Shown here one piece after another: positions 974 through 48,756 of a stretch of DNA of 64,000 nt. Location: assembly GCA_041661245.1 (NCBI GenBank), contig JBAZUY010000001.1, forward strand, positions 64,491-128,490, written 5' to 3'. Under the pieces are notes generated by a model. It made no database searches. It saw nothing but the letters and a program-made list of their open reading frames with translations, and was not told the origin of the DNA. Within the stretch, counting starts at the first letter, position 1; each line of letters opens with the position of its first letter. The stretch is from an archaeon. Its GTDB lineage: Archaea; Iainarchaeota; Iainarchaeia; Iainarchaeales; JAAZKV01. The position numbers and the translations under genes were made by a program.

Positions 974-2098
974 ATGCAAAATTGGACCAATTGGATTTGG
1001 CAAGAAAAAAATTCTATTCAAACAATAAAAGCTCTTGAAGAAAAAATAAATTGGTTCAAACTAAACACATCTAACTCAAAAACAAAACTAAGCATTAAAA
1101 TTACTCCTTATTATTTGAGTCTAATTGATAAAAAAGATAAGAATGACCCTTTGGCAAAAATTGTTGTGCCTTCAGAATTAGAACTAAAAACAAACAATCT
1201 TGAATTAATTAATCCAATTGGAGATGCAGAACAAAATGAAGAAATTAATAACAAAGCAACGGAAATGCTCGTACATAGATACCAAGACAGAGCACTAATT
1301 CTCACTACAGATACTTGCGCAAGTCACTGCAGGTATTGTTTTCGAAGATCGATTGTTTGCAAAGGAAAATTAAAAAACACCAAAAAAGAACTTCAAAAAA
1401 GTATTGGTTATATTAAAAAAAATCCCCACATTAAAGAAGTAATCTTATCTGGTGGAGATCCACTATCCCTTTCAGATAAAAAACTAAAAGAAATTTTACA
1501 AAAACTTTCGAAAATTAAACACGTACGATTAATTCGAATTCACACTCGTTTTCCAGTTTACAACCCTTTTAGAGTAACCCCTAATTTGACTAAATCTTTA
1601 AAATCATCAAAAAAAGAGCTATGGGTAGTTCTGCACATAGCACACCCACGAGAAATAACTTCTGAACTAGAAAATGCAATTAAACTTTTTAGAAAAGCTG
1701 ATATTGCGCTACTTAACCAAACTGTACTTGCGAAAGGAATTAATGATAACCTTGAAATATTAAAAGAACTAAGTTATAGACTAGCAGAAAACCACATCAA
1801 ACCATACTACTTACATTATCCGGATATGGCAATTGGAACAAGTCACTTTAGAATACCCCTAAAACAAGCAATTGAATTACACAAAAATTTGATTGGCCAC
1901 TTGAGTGGCTATTTAGTTCCACAATTAACTTTAGACATCCCAAAAGGCTATGGAAAAATACCTTTGATTCATAATTTTATTAGCGAAATTAAAACTTTAA
2001 ACGAAACTAAATTCATTGAAGTTGAATCGCCACTTGTTAAGGACAAAAACGGAAAGCATAAAAAGAGTTTTTACCAGGAAGTACTTACTTATGATTAA
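974..2098 (+). CDS. KamA-family radical SAM aminomutase (lysine 2,3-aminomutase-like)
   Basis: CASHCRYCFRR (CxxxCxxC) cluster motif, followed by the ILSGGDPL and HIKPYYLH blocks typical of KamA/AblA/EpmB. Confidence 0.8.
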   Translation: MQNWTNWIWQEKNSIQTIKALEEKINWFKLNTSNSKTKLSIKITPYYLSLIDKKDKNDPLAKIVVPSELELKTNNLELINPIGDAEQNEEINNKATEMLVHRYQDRALILTTDTCASHCRYCFRRSIVCKGKLKNTKKELQKSIGYIKKNPHIKEVILSGGDPLSLSDKKLKEILQKLSKIKHVRLIRIHTRFPVYNPFRVTPNLTKSLKSSKKELWVVLHIAHPREITSELENAIKLFRKADIALLNQTVLAKGINDNLEILKELSYRLAENHIKPYYLHYPDMAIGTSHFRIPLKQAIELHKNLIGHLSGYLVPQLTLDIPKGYGKIPLIHNFISEIKTLNETKFIEVESPLVKDKNGKHKKSFYQEVLTYD

Positions 2099-2134
2099 TT
2101 CGTGTAGTAGCTTAATTTGCCGCACACAATTTTG

Positions 2135-2524
2135 ATGGTGAACACTATGGGAAGCTTTGTTGAACTAAATGACACTCTACAAATAACAAGCGAACAAGGT
2201 TTCCCAAGAGAACTTCAATTAGAAAAACACTTAAAAAAACCTTTTACTGCCGAACAATTTAAGGACAAGGTATTTGAATTTTCAAGCAAACCTAAAATTA
2301 GACTCTACCAACAACCACCAGTTCGCAATTTTCTTGTGCAAAACATTAATGGCAAATGGCTTTATTGGGGATTAATCCACATCGTTGAAATTACTCACGA
2401 CATGACTAAGCAAACCACATCAGGAAAATTTAAAATAATTTACATTTACACTCCTGAAGAAATGAAATACGCACACAAATTAATTGACAGAAACAAAGAC
2501 ACTGACTTTTTGAAAGTAATGTGA
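2135..2524 (+). CDS. Hypothetical protein (about 129 aa from first ATG)
   Basis: ORF with coding-like composition directly downstream of the KamA-like gene; no motif recognised. Confidence 0.4.
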   Translation: MVNTMGSFVELNDTLQITSEQGFPRELQLEKHLKKPFTAEQFKDKVFEFSSKPKIRLYQQPPVRNFLVQNINGKWLYWGLIHIVEITHDMTKQTTSGKFKIIYIYTPEEMKYAHKLIDRNKDTDFLKVM

Positions 2525-2591
2525 AGTTTGCAAATCCACCACATTTCTATTTTAAAAAAATTTAACTCATTAAATAAAATAATTATTGAAT

Positions 2592-5048
2592 TTAACTTGT
2601 TCTACAATCTGCAGTGTTAGTAATTCCTTCCCATGCAAGCGGAGGATATCCGATTCCCTCACAAATGTTGCTCCAATTCTTATCAGCACCAAATGTCCAA
2701 GCATCCGTTCCAGTGTATACTGCATGAGTAATTGGGAAGAAAGTACTATCAGTTGTTGAATAGAAAGAATTTGTGACTGGGTCTTGGCCAGTATCTCCAC
2801 CAATTAAACCCCCACTCACATAATAACCATCAACCATAATTGGTCCAGTAGCAAAACAATTTGTAACAGCACCATAACTTCTACCAACTAATCCCCCAAC
2901 TTCAATACTCCCACTTGAAGTACCAGTTGAATAGGAATTTAAAATTGGAGGAGAACCATAACCGTACTGTTGACCTGTAAGCCCGCCAATGTTATATGTT
3001 CCAGAAACACTCGCAGTAGAGTAAGTATTAGAAACTCTTCCAGATGTTTGAGCCCCAATTAACCCACCAACATGCCAAGACCCTGACAACCCAGTAACTA
3101 CCCCAGTACTGTAACAAGCATTAACAACACCATAACTATTAATTCCAATTAATGCACCAGTATCATTAATTCCAGTCACATTAGCATCTACGAGACCAAT
3201 ATTTTTTATTGTACCATATTCATTCACACCAAACAAACCAACAGTATTCTGAGCTCTGTTAATATACAATCCATATATTTTGTGCCCCCCACCATCAAAT
3301 GTTCCTCTAAAACCACTAACTGTTTGAAGAGGCCCAATTGGAGCAAACCCATTTCCATCATTCCAAAAAACTCCGCCCGCATGAGTCGCAGTATACATGT
3401 TTAAATCTGTTGTCAGCAAATAGCTTGCCTGAAGATTTAATTGAATGTCATTCATGTCAAGCACATCATCAATCAAATAAGGGGACAACGCAGTTCCGCT
3501 TCCTCCGCAAATATGCCCAAGCGGACAAGAATCACAAGCATCACCAACACCATCCGAATCAGTATCTTTTTGAGAAGTATTTGGAACAGATAAACAATTA
3601 TCACAAGCATCACCAACACCATCATTATCAGAATCCTCTTGGCCAACATTTGAGACCAAAGCGCAATTGTCTTTTGAATTATTCAAATCATCCAAATCAA
3701 TATCCTCGACAAAAACTGGAAGAGAAGAACCACTCCAACTCCAAGGAATTCCCCAAGCTTGTGAAGAAGTATAAACTGCATGAGATGGAGAATACAAAAC
3801 GCTCTCTGATCCAACGTATGTTCCAAGACCATTATCAAAATCAGTAAAATATGAATTTGTTATTGTACCAACAGGAGTAAGATTTGCCCCTAGTAATCCA
3901 CCATAAGTTGAATTCACTCTAAGCCGACTCGTTGAAAAAGAATTAATTATACTCCCGCTACTTAATCGACCACTAATTCCTCCTCCAGAAGAGCCAGCAT
4001 TTACATCCCCTCGTGAATAAGAATTAATTATTCTCCCAAATACTCCCCCACTAATTCCTCCCGCACTACCCATTCTTGCATTAACATCAACATCCGAATA
4101 ACAATTTAGAATTTCCCCAGATCGTTGCATTCCAACAATTCCACCAACATACTGCGCGCCAATAACTGACCCGCTAACAAAACAATTTTGGAGTTTACCA
4201 TAATTAATGCCCGCGATTGATCCCGCAGTAATTCCTGTAGAATTAACGTTTACATCAATTAGTAAAATATTTTTTATAATACTACTATACCCTGGAGAAC
4301 TAAATAACCCCCTACTATTCCCCGAACCAATTTTTAATCCCATAATTTTATTCCATCTACCATCGAGTCCCCCATTAAATTGATTTGTGCCTGTTCCAAT
4401 CGGCACAAATCCGGCCGCAGTATTAAATGGATCCACATCACAATTAATGTCATTCATAAGAACATAATACCCGTTCAAATCATTCCAAATATTATTCAAA
4501 TCATTACAAGTTTGAATTTTATAAATATTTGAATAAGAAGAATCAGCGAATCTTGCGGTTAAAGGAAGAACTGGATTTCGAGCATTATTGGAATCCGCAT
4601 TCAAAACACATTCTACATTAGTAGTATAGGAATATTTTTTTTCAACCCCATACTTTGAACGAGTATAAACAATTAATTCACATTGCTTTTTTTTACTAGG
4701 AGAATCACAAACACAACCTGTTATTCCATTTAAAGAAAATGTTTTTTGCTCAATTTCTCCAAAATAAATATTATCATAAGGAACTTGCTTTCCGCCAAGA
4801 CTTATTTTTTCTATGGTAAGTGAATCCCCCGTATTATTTCCAAGAACTATTATTGCATTTCCAGAAGCATCCAACACTGAATCAGAAATTGAAATCGAAG
4901 AAGTTTTGTCACCCAAAGTAGACATGTTTGTTGAAGTATCCCCCGTATTTGTATTAGAGGACATTATCCCAACCACTACAAGAGAAAGAACAACTACTAC
5001 CCCAATTATTACAAGATACTCAACTGTACCCTGCCCCCGATTAAACAT
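2592..5048 (-). CDS. Surface adhesin with archaeal class III (pilin-type) signal peptide, two GLUG-motif repeat arrays and two thrombospondin type 3 calcium-binding repeats
   Basis: N-terminus is [29 protein letters not shown]. There are many GG(L/I)(I/V/L)G repeats (GGIVG, GGLLG, GGLIG, GGLTG, GGLVG). [14 protein letters not shown] and [14 protein letters not shown] lie between the two arrays. Confidence 0.75.
3531..3623 (-). repeat. Two copies of a 24-nt identical segment, 69 nt apart, encoding the TSP3 core DGVGDACD
   Basis: atcacaagcatcaccaacaccatc occurs at 3531-3554 and again at 3600-3623. Confidence 0.85.
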
Positions 5049-5141: not shown

Positions 5142-6098
5142 ATGAAAAATAAAGCACAAGTATTCTCACTAGAACATACCCTCTTACAAGGACATTCTTC
5201 CATTCGGGGGCAAGGAGCAATAGAATATTTACTAATAATCGGCGCTGCAATACTTGTTGTAGCAATAGTTACCCTCGCAATTACCTCTTTACTTGGCCAA
5301 GGCCAAACTCAAACTACAAGCGGAGCAAATGAACAAGGCAGTGCGCTAGGAGGATTAACAAGTCTTGCTTACGTAACAGTGTCTGGAAGTAATTATCAAA
5401 AATCAGATCCGATTGTAACTTCACTTAAATCAATGTGGACACTTAATGATGCAAGTACAATTACTGATTCGGTTGGAGGAATAAATGGAACTTGTGGTAC
5501 TGCATGCCCAACATTAATTAACGGAATATCAGGAAATGCATTTCATTTCACAAGTGGAAACACTGCACCTGAGCAATATATACTAATAGATAATATTCCA
5601 GCACCTAACGAAGTAACATATTCTACATGGTTTAGAACTTCGAGTACTGGGTACATTTCATCATTTCGCACATATAATGACCCAATATCTTTAGATCCGG
5701 ATAATCCAAATCATTGGAGAGGAAGCTTAAGCATCGATGCTTCAAACTATTTATTCTGGGAGGTTGGCTCTTGGACAAGCGCAGAATGTCCTTCCAACTC
5801 CTTGCACCTGCTCAAATCAAAAGAACCGATTACATTTAATGAATGGCACATGGCAACACTCACAGTGGATTATAATCCATTCATTGGAAAATTTTATCTT
5901 GACGGGGAATTACAAGCTACCCACAATGACGGAAAAGCATGCAGCAATAATTCAAACTATTTGTGGTTAGGAAGAAGAAAAATACTCGGGCAAGGAACAC
6001 CAACAAATTTTATTGGAGATATTGATGATTTTGCAATTTGGGATAGACAACTTACAAGCGATGAAATAAAAACACTTTATACTAATGCTAAGAAATAA
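5142..6098 (+). CDS. Class III signal peptide protein fused to a LamG/concanavalin-A-like lectin domain
   Basis: SSIRG/QGAIEYLLIIGAAILVVAIVTLAI pilin-type signal. The C-terminal block WHMATLTVD...LYLDGEL...FIGDIDDFAIWDRQLTSDEI is typical of Laminin_G_3 domains. First ATG is at 5142 (the track ORF starts at TTG 5121). Confidence 0.75.
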   Translation: MKNKAQVFSLEHTLLQGHSSIRGQGAIEYLLIIGAAILVVAIVTLAITSLLGQGQTQTTSGANEQGSALGGLTSLAYVTVSGSNYQKSDPIVTSLKSMWTLNDASTITDSVGGINGTCGTACPTLINGISGNAFHFTSGNTAPEQYILIDNIPAPNEVTYSTWFRTSSTGYISSFRTYNDPISLDPDNPNHWRGSLSIDASNYLFWEVGSWTSAECPSNSLHLLKSKEPITFNEWHMATLTVDYNPFIGKFYLDGELQATHNDGKACSNNSNYLWLGRRKILGQGTPTNFIGDIDDFAIWDRQLTSDEIKTLYTNAKK

Positions 6099-45595: not shown

Positions 45596-45797
45596 AAACT
45601 AAAGATGCTTAGAAACAAATAAAAAGTCTGCCAAAGAGACAAAATACTCCAATTGCTATTTAACAATCAAAACAATGCTTAGGAAATCCTTTTGAGAAAG
45701 CCAACTACATTTATTGAGATAATGCCCACTAAACAGGCAGGATTAAATACTTGAAAAAGTAGAATTACTAATCGACTCTGTGCGAGGTGAAAAATAA

Positions 45798-45872
45798 ATG
45801 GCTCCAAAAAGTAAAGCAAAACCAAAAGCAAAAGCGGCTAAAAAAAGTGGCGGATGTTGCTGCTGCCAATAA
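45798..45872 (+). CDS. Micro-ORF 1: 24-aa polybasic peptide MAPKSKAKPKAKAAKKSGGCCCCQ
   Basis: gaggtga Shine-Dalgarno lies 6 nt upstream of the ATG. The ORF has its own terminator hairpin 19 nt after the stop. It is below the ORF-track size cutoff. Confidence 0.55.
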   Translation: MAPKSKAKPKAKAAKKSGGCCCCQ

Positions 45873-45890
45873 ATAAATTAAATTAATTCG

Positions 45891-45911
45891 CTGGAGTAAA
45901 AAAAACTCCAG
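45891..45911 (+). terminator. Hairpin plus T-run after micro-ORF 1
   Basis: ctggag-taaaaaaaa-ctccag followed by caactattttttt. Confidence 0.5.
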
Positions 45912-46035
45912 CAACTATTTTTTTAAAAAATAATAAACGTGAGAAAAATATCTCTAAAAAAATACCAATGCTTATATATTAGATAAGGACTCTTCTGAAT
46001 AGAACTAATTTTTTTGGTTCAGGGGTGAAATAAAA

Positions 46036-46086
46036 ATGGCAGCAAAAAAGAAAAAAGCAGTTAAGAGAAAAGCTAAGAAAAAATAA
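46036..46086 (+). CDS. Micro-ORF 2: 16-aa polybasic peptide MAAKKKKAVKRKAKKK
   Basis: ggggtga lies 8 nt upstream of the ATG, and TATA-like cttatatatt about 60 nt upstream. A strong terminator hairpin follows 26 nt after the stop. Confidence 0.5.
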   Translation: MAAKKKKAVKRKAKKK

Positions 46087-46112: not shown

Positions 46113-46136
46113 GGCGAAAGGATTTTTCCTTTCGCC
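46113..46136 (+). terminator. Perfect 10-bp hairpin after micro-ORF 2
   Basis: ggcgaaagga-tttt-tcctttcgcc. Confidence 0.55.
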
Positions 46137-46324: not shown

Positions 46325-47749
46325 ATGTTTCAAAAAGAAGAACAAGAAAAAAATCACGATCAAAACTCAGAAAAAAATTCTGTTCAACAGGATTCTGAAA
46401 CTAAAAATGGTAACGGTAACGGACACGACGAAACAAAAGTAAAAACAAAACAACCTTTTGAATCAAAAAAATTCTTATTCGTTTCAATAGATGCACTAAT
46501 CACAGACATCGCATGGCAGGTAAAGAAAGAAGGACATGAGGTAAAATACTATATTGAAGACAAAGGCGAAAATGAAGTTGGGGACGGATTCGTTGAAAAG
46601 GTAACTGACTGGGAAAAAGAAGTTGATTGGGCGGATGTAATTGTTTTTGATGATGTTTTAGGACACGGAAAAAAAGCCAAAGCAATGAGAGATAGAGGAA
46701 AAAAAGTTGTAGGCGGAACACCATATACTGATCGATTAGAGGATGAAAGAGCATTTGGACAAGAAGAATTAGTGAAATACGGAATACCAGTAGCACCATA
46801 CAAAGATTTTACTAAATTTGATGATGCAATTCAATTTGTAAAGGATAACCCTGGAAAATATGTAATAAAACCAAGCGGAGAAGCGCAAAACAACAAAGGA
46901 CTATTGTTTATCGGTGAAGAAGAAGATGGAAAAGATGTTATCCAAGTATTAATGGATTACAAAAGTGCTTGGCAAAAGAAAATACCTGATTTTCAACTCC
47001 AAAAGAAACTCAGCGGAGTAGAAGTTGCGGTAGGAGCATTCTTCAATGGAAAAGAATTCATTTACCCAGTAAACATTAACTTTGAACACAAAAAATTATT
47101 TCCTGGAAACCTTGGACCCTCAACAGGAGAAATGGGAACTACAATGTTCTGGACTGGTCCGAACAAATTATTTAACTCAACTCTAAAAAAGTTCGAACAA
47201 AAGTTTGCAGAAGAAAACTATGTAGGGTATATTGACATTAATTTTATAGTAAACACTAACGGAATATATCCCCTTGAATGGACTTCACGCTTCGGATATC
47301 CAACAATAAGTATCCAGCAGGAATCATTCATTACCCCTATTGGAGAATTTTTATACGATTTAGCAAACGGTAACAACCCAAAACTTAAAGTAAAGAGCGG
47401 ATTCCACATAGGAGTAAGAATAGTAGTACCTCCCTTCCCATTCGATGATGACAAAACTTTTGAAGTAAAGTCAAAAGACTCAATAATATTTTTGAAGAAA
47501 CCAAATTATGAAGGAATACACTTAGAAGATGTAAAAATGGTTAATGATGAATGGCTAGTAACAGGAAACACAGGGGTAATACTAATCGTTTGCGGAAGCG
47601 GACAGACAATGAGACAAGCTCAAAAACAAGCATACAGCCGAATAAAAAATATTCTAATACCCCACATGTACTACCGAACAGATATTGGGGACAGATGGTT
47701 TGAAGACTCGGATAAATTAACTACTTGGGGATATTTAAGAGAAGCTTAA
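46325..47749 (+). CDS. PurD (GAR synthetase)-like ATP-grasp enzyme with low-complexity N-terminal extension
   Basis: KYVIKPSGEAQNNKGLLF and FEHKKLFPGNLGPSTGEMGT parallel the PurD blocks (IKADGLAAGKG, DHKR..DGD.GPNTGGMG). The N-terminal GGREHA motif is absent. No other pur genes are in the window. Confidence 0.6.
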   Translation: MFQKEEQEKNHDQNSEKNSVQQDSETKNGNGNGHDETKVKTKQPFESKKFLFVSIDALITDIAWQVKKEGHEVKYYIEDKGENEVGDGFVEKVTDWEKEVDWADVIVFDDVLGHGKKAKAMRDRGKKVVGGTPYTDRLEDERAFGQEELVKYGIPVAPYKDFTKFDDAIQFVKDNPGKYVIKPSGEAQNNKGLLFIGEEEDGKDVIQVLMDYKSAWQKKIPDFQLQKKLSGVEVAVGAFFNGKEFIYPVNINFEHKKLFPGNLGPSTGEMGTTMFWTGPNKLFNSTLKKFEQKFAEENYVGYIDINFIVNTNGIYPLEWTSRFGYPTISIQQESFITPIGEFLYDLANGNNPKLKVKSGFHIGVRIVVPPFPFDDDKTFEVKSKDSIIFLKKPNYEGIHLEDVKMVNDEWLVTGNTGVILIVCGSGQTMRQAQKQAYSRIKNILIPHMYYRTDIGDRWFEDSDKLTTWGYLREA

Positions 47750-47808: not shown

Positions 47809-48294
47809 ATGATTGGTATGAATCATGAGAAAGAAAAAGTTATTCAAAAAATAAAGAATACTTACTGTCGAATAATGCCTTCAAAGCTTCACGGCGTTGG
47901 AGTATTTGCGATAAGAGACATCCCAAAAGATATAAATCCATTCGGGATAGAAACAAAACAAAAATGGGTCCGAGTTCACTTAAAAGACCTTGGCGAAATA
48001 CACCCAAACCTTAACGAGATGATAGAAGCATTTTATGTAATAAAAAAAGACGGAAGTGTATGGATAAACTCAGGCGGACTCGGATCAATTGGAATATCCT
48101 TTTACATGAACACTTCAAAAAACCCAAACATGAAAACAATTGATGAAGGATTTACTTTTATTACAAGCAAAGAAATAAAATGCGGGGAAGAGTTGCTCGC
48201 AGATTATGGAGAATTCGACTGGAAATACAAGCAATCCGAGAAAGATAAAACAAAAACTAAATTGATAAAGAAAAACAAAACTAAAGGCAAGTAA
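47809..48294 (+). CDS. SET-domain protein (divergent) with lysine-rich tail
   Basis: LHGVGVFAIRDIPKD, FYMNTSKNPNM (degenerate NHSxxPN), GEELLADYG. Confidence 0.55.
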   Translation: MIGMNHEKEKVIQKIKNTYCRIMPSKLHGVGVFAIRDIPKDINPFGIETKQKWVRVHLKDLGEIHPNLNEMIEAFYVIKKDGSVWINSGGLGSIGISFYMNTSKNPNMKTIDEGFTFITSKEIKCGEELLADYGEFDWKYKQSEKDKTKTKLIKKNKTKGK

Positions 48295-48327
48295 AAAAAT
48301 GGAAGAATTAACTGCGAAGATGATCTT

Positions 48328-48756
48328 ATGAAATATCCCTCAAAAGTAATTAAAATTTCTTACGGCAAAGCACTAGTTGCAACAAAAGATTTACCTGCAG
48401 GGACAGTTGTTCAAAAATTTGAAGGAGAAATAATGACTTACAAAGAAGTTCCCGAGGATATGGTTTGCCATGCGATTTGCGTTGGAGAAGAAAACGAGGA
48501 TAAATGGGTTGTTTCAAAAACAGATGCAATTTATGCCAATCATGCATGCGAACCAAACTGCGAAGTTGGGGATGATTTAAACATCATAACCATAAAAGAA
48601 GTAAAAAAAGACGAAGAACTAACATTTGTTTACAATGAACTTAGTCCTGAAGAACGAGAAGCAGAGTTCTTGTGGGATAAAAAATGGGACTTTGAATGCA
48701 AATGCGGCAGTAAAAACTGCCAAGGAAACATTAACAAATACGTAAAAAGAAAATAA
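48328..48756 (+). CDS. SET-domain protein-lysine methyltransferase with post-SET Cys motif
   Basis: GKALVATKDLPAGTVV, YANHACEPNCEV, DEELTFVYN, CKCGSKNCQG. Confidence 0.85.
   Translation: MKYPSKVIKISYGKALVATKDLPAGTVVQKFEGEIMTYKEVPEDMVCHAICVGEENEDKWVVSKTDAIYANHACEPNCEVGDDLNIITIKEVKKDEELTFVYNELSPEEREAEFLWDKKWDFECKCGSKNCQGNINKYVKRK

Follow-up and report, generated by a model that had tools for sequence, protein, structure and literature searches.

The window analysed in our study, a stretch of 64,000 nucleotides from an archaeal genome (G000; 1.31 Mb in 5 contigs, 34.7% G+C), was found to contain a Cys-tailed micro-gene at positions 45798..45872 of the plus strand. The host, which the initial annotation had taken for an archaeon, belongs to the genus holding Candidatus Forterrea in the Iainarchaeota, a DPANN phylum. 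The gene codes for MAPKSKAKPKAKAAKKSGGCCCCQ, a peptide of 24 aa also written (M)APKSKAKPKAKAAKKSGGCCCCQ, with the start codon ATG at 45798 and the stop codon TAA at 45870-45872. A Lys/Ala/Pro-rich body (45798-45848) is followed by an SGG linker (45846-45854), a Cys run encoded by TGT TGC TGC TGC (45855-45866), and a terminal Gln codon (45867-45869), directly before the stop. Reading of the ORF confirmed the SGG, the four consecutive Cys and the terminal Gln of the earlier description. The Lys residues were found at positions 4, 6, 8, 10, 12, 15, and 16, so that the first 17 residues contain 7 Lys and not the nine that had been counted; Lys makes up 29% of the peptide. An in-frame TAA lies immediately 5' of the ATG, and the product, having its own start and no cargo domain, is free-standing, as had been proposed. 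At such a length, a gene is shorter than the usual minimum of gene callers.

The micro-gene is preceded by the Shine-Dalgarno-like sequence GAGGTGA (45784..45790, plus strand), 7 nt 5' of the ATG. The A/T-rich ATTAAATA at 45742..45749 (plus strand), about 50 nt 5' of the ATG, is a putative archaeal TATA element. The same letters are present in the orthologue of G015, and similar A/T boxes lie 40-57 nt 5' of the ATG at the remaining family loci; in a genome of 35% G+C, such boxes are weak evidence of a promoter. On the 3' side, a stem-loop of GCTGGAGT-A7-ACTCCAGC followed by T7 (45890..45924, plus strand) may serve as the transcript end or as a stabiliser. The hairpin (45890-45912) contains a G+C-rich 8-bp stem with the T7 directly 3' of it, and it was found to fold independently of the Cys-codon region in both the minimum-energy and the centroid folds. 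A scan of the window with Rfam returned two tRNAs only, and no family at the micro-gene locus. The window also holds bacterial-type LeuRS and AspRS, but the flanks of related loci point to an archaeal host: they code for proteins that, by eye, look like archaeal L21e and Orc1/Cdc6, and for DP2 polymerase, aEF-2 and aEF-1alpha, which Pfam confirmed.

A second polybasic micro-ORF, MAAKKKKAVKRKAKKK of 16 aa, was found at 46036..46086 of the plus strand, 165 nt 3' of the first. It is also led by a Shine-Dalgarno-like sequence, GGGGTGA (46022..46028, plus strand), the context of which, gttcaggggtgaaataaaa, is identical in G015. The counterpart in G015, MVAKKKVVKKKAAKKC, is of equal length, has the same Shine-Dalgarno sequence, and carries Cys at its end. 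MAAKKKKAVKRKAKKK is possibly a Cys-less paralogue of the Cys-tailed peptide. A hairpin, GGCGAAAGG-ATTTTT-CCTTTCGCC, was read from the sequence 3' of this micro-ORF (46113..46136, plus strand); as the plus strand has no T-run after it, the terminator scan did not list it.

Related genes were searched by a pattern scan of 60 relatives with region fetches. Six-frame profile searches were then run across all 196 genomes of the order and the 215 of the phylum, and a further search covered 401 genomes of another phylum, the one to which 'Woesearchaeota' UBA10216 belongs. The family shares one design, which consists of Met, 15-20 Lys-rich residues spaced by Ala, Pro, Thr or Val, a cluster of 3-5 Cys, 0-1 residue, and the stop. 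This design was found in 13 Iainarchaeota genomes (G000, G002, G004, G006, G012, G015, G019, G021, G022, G050, G189, G190, and G195) and in two genomes of another DPANN phylum (G416 and G324), so the proposed search for other archaeal poly-Cys micro-ORFs yielded 12 further Iainarchaeota genomes and two of a second phylum. The members are MAPKSKAKPKAKTAKKSGGCCCCQ in G015, MPAKKTVKKAKPAKKEECCCCCK in G012, MPAKKKVVKKKTVKKEEKCCCCCE in G002, MPAKKKTIKKKTVKREEKCCCCCE in G021, MVKAKKTKKKIVKKKESKCCCCCE in G022, MVVKKKAKSKAKPKKKKCCCCC in G006, MPAKKTVKKTTKAKKDDCGCSCCCR in G019, MPAKKTVKKSTKAKAKKEEDCGCHCCCR in G004, and MASSTKAKSGAKKKASHSHKEGCCCC in G050, which belongs to another family. Looser variants were MPNKKKDKKKATAKESHECEFC and MPGKKDTKKKETKKESHQCEFC in family f32. 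The search of the other phylum added MPKKKKTTRKKKPAKKKKSRCCCCG in G416 and MKKTKKKTKAKKKSGGSCCGM in G324. Among the matches listed in a pattern scan of genome contigs, at least three members were found again, the others being mostly out-of-frame chance. A metagenome scan with the MPAKK...CCC pattern provided at least one convincing new member, MPAKKKKVVKKKAVKKTAKKKGCCCRCSK on contig L233, followed by a strong terminator hairpin. The family counts from these scans are lower bounds. No polybasic member was found among the matches listed in a scan of viral contigs. The distribution is patchy, with members in 8 of the 22 genomes of the genus and two weak matches in the 401 genomes of the other phylum; the function is therefore not essential. 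As the Lys-rich body is of low complexity, common descent of the distant variants is not provable.

The family ORFs are 21-29 codons long, each with its own start, and the family HMM matched the window ORF with E=3e-9. Identity between G000 and G015 is 94.7% in the ORF and 49-81% in its flanks; no other part of the intergenic region is as well conserved. The 47 Cys codons compared differed by TGT/TGC exchange only. Cores of the Shine-Dalgarno type (GGAGG, GGTGA, GGGAG) were present 5-10 nt 5' of the start in all 15 loci from related genomes, and no such core was found at the metagenome copy L233. Hairpins of unrelated sequence with T-runs lie 3' of the orthologues in G015, G012, G019, G004, and L233. 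Together, the TGT/TGC-only changes, the kept Shine-Dalgarno sequence, the kept hairpins and the identity of the ORF indicate selection on the protein. The Cys run itself was conserved at orthologous as well as related loci; its absence there had been named in advance as the result that would speak against a functional peptide.

The micro-gene also stands out within its own genome. The ORFs of at least 150 aa in G000 contain 1.16% Cys, and CCC is absent from every one of them. Runs of four TGY codons occur 13 times in the six frames of the genome; 12 of them lie in short start-less frames, and only the ORF at 45798-45872 is ATG-started, led by a Shine-Dalgarno sequence and closed just past the run. 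A Shine-Dalgarno core precedes 12% of the long ORFs of G000 as against 1.6% for a control window. The whole genome contains 40 intergenic micro-ORFs led by such a core, and by their share of Lys+Arg, the two of the window rank first and sixth. The in-frame stop, the scarcity of the Shine-Dalgarno sequence, the hairpin with T7, and the recurrence with synonymous changes in the Cys codons are together beyond chance. These results show that 45798-45872 is a real micro-gene that codes for a protein, has signals of its own and is under selection, and that the family to which it belongs is unannotated and occurs in tiny groundwater archaea of the DPANN group.

The neighbours of the micro-gene in G000 are common to G015 only. 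In both genomes, an uncharacterised gene of 138 aa lies upstream; on the downstream side, the second micro-ORF comes first, then a GARS-like ATP-grasp gene, then SET genes. In the window (46325-47749 and 47809-48756, both on the plus strand), the ATP-grasp gene has no pur neighbours and is followed by two SET-domain genes. A link of the micro-ORFs to the PurD-like ATP-grasp gene and the SET genes, in which the Lys-rich peptides would be methylation substrates, was considered and rejected, as this synteny is found only in G015. The neighbours at other loci include a BCAT-like gene (by eye) and a flavin reductase (Pfam); L21e-like and Orc1/Cdc6-like genes (by eye) and DP2 polymerase (Pfam); a UvrC-like gene (by eye) with a Methyltransf_31 gene; malic enzyme with SufC-like and FeS_assembly_P genes; PGI/PMI with PEP synthase; and a [FeFe]-hydrogenase-like gene. 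The copy of G050 lies on the same strand between the genes of aEF-2 and aEF-1alpha, both confirmed by Pfam. The downstream gene is convergent at no fewer than six loci (G002, G021, G012, G019, G004, and L233). Differing neighbours and convergent downstream genes identify a stand-alone gene and not a leader peptide; the micro-gene is a stand-alone unit that was occasionally recruited into operons.

Searches of Pfam, NCBIfam and PDB gave no match at E<=10 except for one meaningless match to S1FA (E=0.83). None of 10 family peptides was present in an exact look-up in a collection of about 15 billion proteins, and the literature searches on small proteins of polycysteine or Lys-rich type, in DPANN or in prokaryotes, brought up work on mycobacterial attenuators and nothing else. 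The family is undescribed; it is akin to the Cys clusters of metallothionein type and the polycations of protamine type and is a member of neither. Even without a function, it is a clean and testable case of conserved micro-proteins in DPANN archaea.

A scan for CCCCC[K/Q/E] followed by a stop showed that, among the matches listed, the same kind of tail ends full-length ordinary proteins of unrelated bacteria. These matches included PGK in at least three unrelated bacteria, GAPDH, Fe/Mn SOD, a thioredoxin-fold protein whose gene follows those of an ArsR regulator and an ArsP_1 permease, and an unassigned protein of 273 aa. The loci of the tailed proteins are L138 6222-7442(+), L186 3291-4496(-), L210 6695-7906(-), L180 121-465(+), L137 5443-6081(+), L184 5010-5282(+), and L172 67-822(+). 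Finding PGK with a CCCCC tail at least three times among the matches listed is far beyond chance, and the occurrence of one tail on several ordinary proteins marks it as a portable C-terminal module. The chloroplast GAPDH subunit B extension and CP12 contain two spaced Cys that form a regulatory disulfide. They share with the CCCCC-K/E tails of bacterial PGK and GAPDH a Cys-bearing C-terminus on an enzyme of glycolysis or the Calvin cycle, but they have no run of five Cys and are not known as free peptides.

The reading that we favour, with somewhat less than even confidence, is that of a disordered polycation whose terminal thiols bind soft metals or metalloids and/or form disulfides, and whose polylysine body tethers it to polyanions. 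The peptide would be disordered and strongly cationic, with a net charge of about +7, and the C-terminal thiol cluster would be its working end. Candidate ligands of this cluster are soft metals and metalloids, among them Cu(I), Zn, Cd and As(III); alternatively or additionally, it may form disulfides between peptides. The polylysine body would keep the poly-Cys soluble and hold the peptide on polyanions, for example on nucleic acids, on ribosomes or at acidic membrane surfaces. Such a gene-encoded cationic thiol could buffer or chaperone metals on a small scale, or act as a redox-protective sink.

The metal binding considered in the initial annotation was found to have circumstantial evidence on its side. 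His adjoins Cys in several variants (SHSHKEGCCCC, DCGCHCCCR, ESH(E/Q)CEFC). In G324, the gene of MKKTKKKTKAKKKSGGSCCGM (L464 1492-1557, minus strand) lies 11 nt 3' of an ATPase gene (1569-3053, minus strand) that codes for a Cu-type P1B ATPase with a CPC motif (TIGR01511, 564 bits), and its Shine-Dalgarno sequence overlaps the stop codon of the ATPase gene. This coupling concerns one distant variant among 16 loci. The f32 variants adjoin SufC-like and FeS_assembly_P genes, and K/S/G-CCCCC-K/E before a stop ends both the thioredoxin-fold protein of the ArsR-ArsP_1 operon and the Fe/Mn SOD. The number of Cys speaks against a classical metal cluster: the peptides contain 2-5 Cys (17-23% Cys), and 4-5 adjacent Cys are too few for a cluster of metallothionein type within one chain. 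The CCCCC tail on PGK and GAPDH fits a redox or abundance role equally with a metal role. A 91-aa holin_4-like membrane protein comes after MKKTKKKTKAKKKSGGSCCGM in L464. G000 has a CopA-like ATPase (G000:C1:402940-404373) that is 67% identical in protein to that of G324, an unusually high value across phyla, which suggests that the ATPase gene may have been transferred. The gene is not followed by a micro-ORF in G000, and nothing else follows it.

Metallothioneins and Cys/His-rich metal-binding tails are known from SmtA, MymT, the tails of SlyD and HypB, and Hpn. The archaeal peptides resemble them in being small and free of aromatic residues (none in the CCCC-type members, one Phe in the f32 variants), in containing CC/CxC with at least 15% Cys and sometimes His, and, in one variant, in the coupling to a Cu ATPase gene. 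They differ in that metallothioneins need about 7-20 Cys per chain whereas the archaeal peptides have 2-5, in that all their Cys lie at the extreme C-terminus and are fused to a polycation, and in the lack of similarity to any entry of Pfam, NCBIfam or PDB. If the peptide acts as a cationic thiol buffer, chaperone or redox switch, it would be a new and very cheap way of handling metals and oxidants in minimal genomes.

An alternative, which we consider rather unlikely, is a redox-switchable, protamine-like binder of the nucleoid or ribosome. Its Lys/Ala/Pro body would bind DNA or RNA, and upon oxidation or bridging by metal, the Cys tails would cross-link the peptides into multivalent polycations that compact nucleic acid or protect it, with metal buffering as a secondary role. 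The position of the G050 gene between aEF-2 and aEF-1alpha, a highly expressed translation context, and the Cys-poor polybasic micro-ORF 165 nt downstream in the window are in line with this, as is the AKPKAKAAKK composition, which is like that of tails of the H1 and protamine type. Oxidation makes synthetic oligolysines flanked by Cys condense DNA. Protamines, H1 tails and Cys-oligolysine condensers, with which the archaeal peptide has in common a short polycation with cross-linkable Cys, are eukaryotic or synthetic and Arg-rich. Across the family loci, genes of chromatin or ribosomal proteins were not consistently linked to the micro-gene. The likeness is one of composition: the share of Lys+Arg in the family ranges between 29 and 52%, and the G000 peptide has only 29% Lys. 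The same tail on PGK, GAPDH and SOD requires no DNA binding.

The initial annotation had compared the peptide with the lipid-anchored tails of Ras/Rab GTPases. In this explanation, the Cys would be S-acylated or linked to an isoprenoid by a thioether, and the polybasic stretch would lie on acidic lipids, as in K-Ras4B, GAP-43 or the Rab tails. A polybasic stretch with a terminal Cys cluster is the classic two-signal membrane anchor of eukaryotes, a Lys-rich stretch followed by C-terminal Cys is shared with Ras/Rho/Rab tails such as K-Ras4B and Rab CC/CXC, and a thioether-linked lipid has been reported on archaeal proteins. The ends of the family peptides vary, however (CCCCQ, CCCCCE, CCCCCK, CCCCC, CCCC, CCCR, and CCCCG), and as the last residue can be Q, E, K, R or G or be lacking, they do not form a CaaX box. 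The Rab CC/CXC motif, with two Cys among the final 2-5 residues, is formally present; Rab substrates are not defined by this motif alone and need recognition of the GTPase fold by REP. The peptide carries neither a GTPase nor any other cargo domain, and its host is an archaeon. A protein prenyltransferase (PPTA repeats, PF01239) was found in none of the 22 genomes of the genus. No DHHC palmitoyltransferase (PF01529) scored over the cut-off in these 22 genomes, where a single sub-threshold match was full of stops. An identical tail also occurs on soluble cytosolic enzymes. The comparison with GTPase tails was thus not borne out, and we regard a lipid anchor as improbable.

A role in cis, in which ribosomes pause on the Cys run at low Cys-tRNA and alter downstream expression, appears even less probable, although a tiny ORF with 4-5 consecutive Cys codons and a terminator behind it is arranged like an attenuator. 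The mycobacterial polycysteine sORFs of the Ms5788A type are a precedent (Canestrari et al., bioRxiv 10.1101/834739); they are leaderless, come first in their operons with genes of cysteine metabolism downstream, and act in cis by ribosome pausing, the peptide itself being irrelevant (bioRxiv 10.1101/834739). The archaeal ORF resembles them in being unannotated, in its length of a few dozen codons or fewer, and in its consecutive Cys codons. It differs in its archaeal host, in being led by a Shine-Dalgarno sequence instead of leaderless, in its own terminator, and in a polybasic body that is conserved in composition and length. It often faces a convergent gene (at six or more loci), and its neighbours (GARS-like/SET, BCAT-like, UvrC-like, EF-1alpha, and PEP synthase) are unrelated to Cys metabolism. 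In the predicted fold, the Cys region did not pair alternatively with the terminator.

A chance ORF, or a conserved RNA or DNA motif in place of a peptide, might be suspected from an ORF so short and of such low complexity. We hold this to be very improbable, given that all 16 loci, across two phyla, retain the start and the stop, that a Shine-Dalgarno sequence is present at every locus but L233, that the Cys codons vary at third positions only, that the DNA diverges while the amino-acid composition stays, and that the locus matches no Rfam family. A RiPP precursor, in which a Lys-rich leader would precede a Cys core matured to thiazoles or thioethers, is barely credible: cores such as DCGCSCCCR and SGGCCCC look like those of azole peptides, but YcaO was found in 0 of the 22 genomes of the genus, the controls being found in 5 known genomes, and no maturase, protease or transporter is a conserved neighbour.

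The reading as a metal- and redox-active cationic thiol can be extended, as a doubtful possibility, to the tailed proteins. The Cys run with 0-1 following residue may be a portable and unrecognised functional module of mostly anaerobic prokaryotes with small genomes. The polylysine micro-proteins of DPANN archaea and the tailed abundant cytosolic enzymes of unrelated bacteria would together provide a gene-encoded thiol pool that buffers soft metals, metalloids or oxidants in cells without low-molecular-weight thiols; the free peptide would then be its minimal, polyanion-tethered form. The proposed role of the peptide, if true, would also hint at a broader use of poly-Cys as a C-terminal module of housekeeping enzymes.

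Some further sequences were observed during the searches. Outside the window, at G000:C1:14336-14467 (minus strand), an ORF of 43 aa led by a Shine-Dalgarno sequence codes for MATRSKDSSRFKKTKARQRWKWTKKKAKRQRRKKRYLRQRARS, which, by eye, looks like ribosomal protein eL41. In IMG/VR, the contigs L344, L356 and L360 and about 25 more contain a conserved open frame of about 29-35 codons, MLVTILPFNAIGIGCCIVGWYICCCCCCK, which is hydrophobic, ends in poly-Cys-Lys, and varies at the amino-acid level across the viral contigs; it may be a phage membrane micro-protein or an out-of-frame artefact. On a Thorarchaeota contig (L144), the frame that ends at 5149-5169 (plus strand) contains a His/Cys-rich ORF of 19 codons, MVYQAHHCVSQCSCCCCCE, which starts directly after a stop codon. 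Start-less frames of 8 codons, for example xxCCCCCQ-stop and LHCCCCCK-stop, recurred between species in L113, L125, L177, L179, L196, and L208 of Pelagibacter and in L111, L169, and L216 of Rivularia/Richelia; these are probably another frame of a conserved gene. The minus strand of L065 (G023:C79) contained a Lys-rich repeat protein, MVVKKKVAKKKTVAKKKPAVKKKTVAKKKPAVKKKV..., of H1/AlgP-like low complexity, which runs off the end of the contig.
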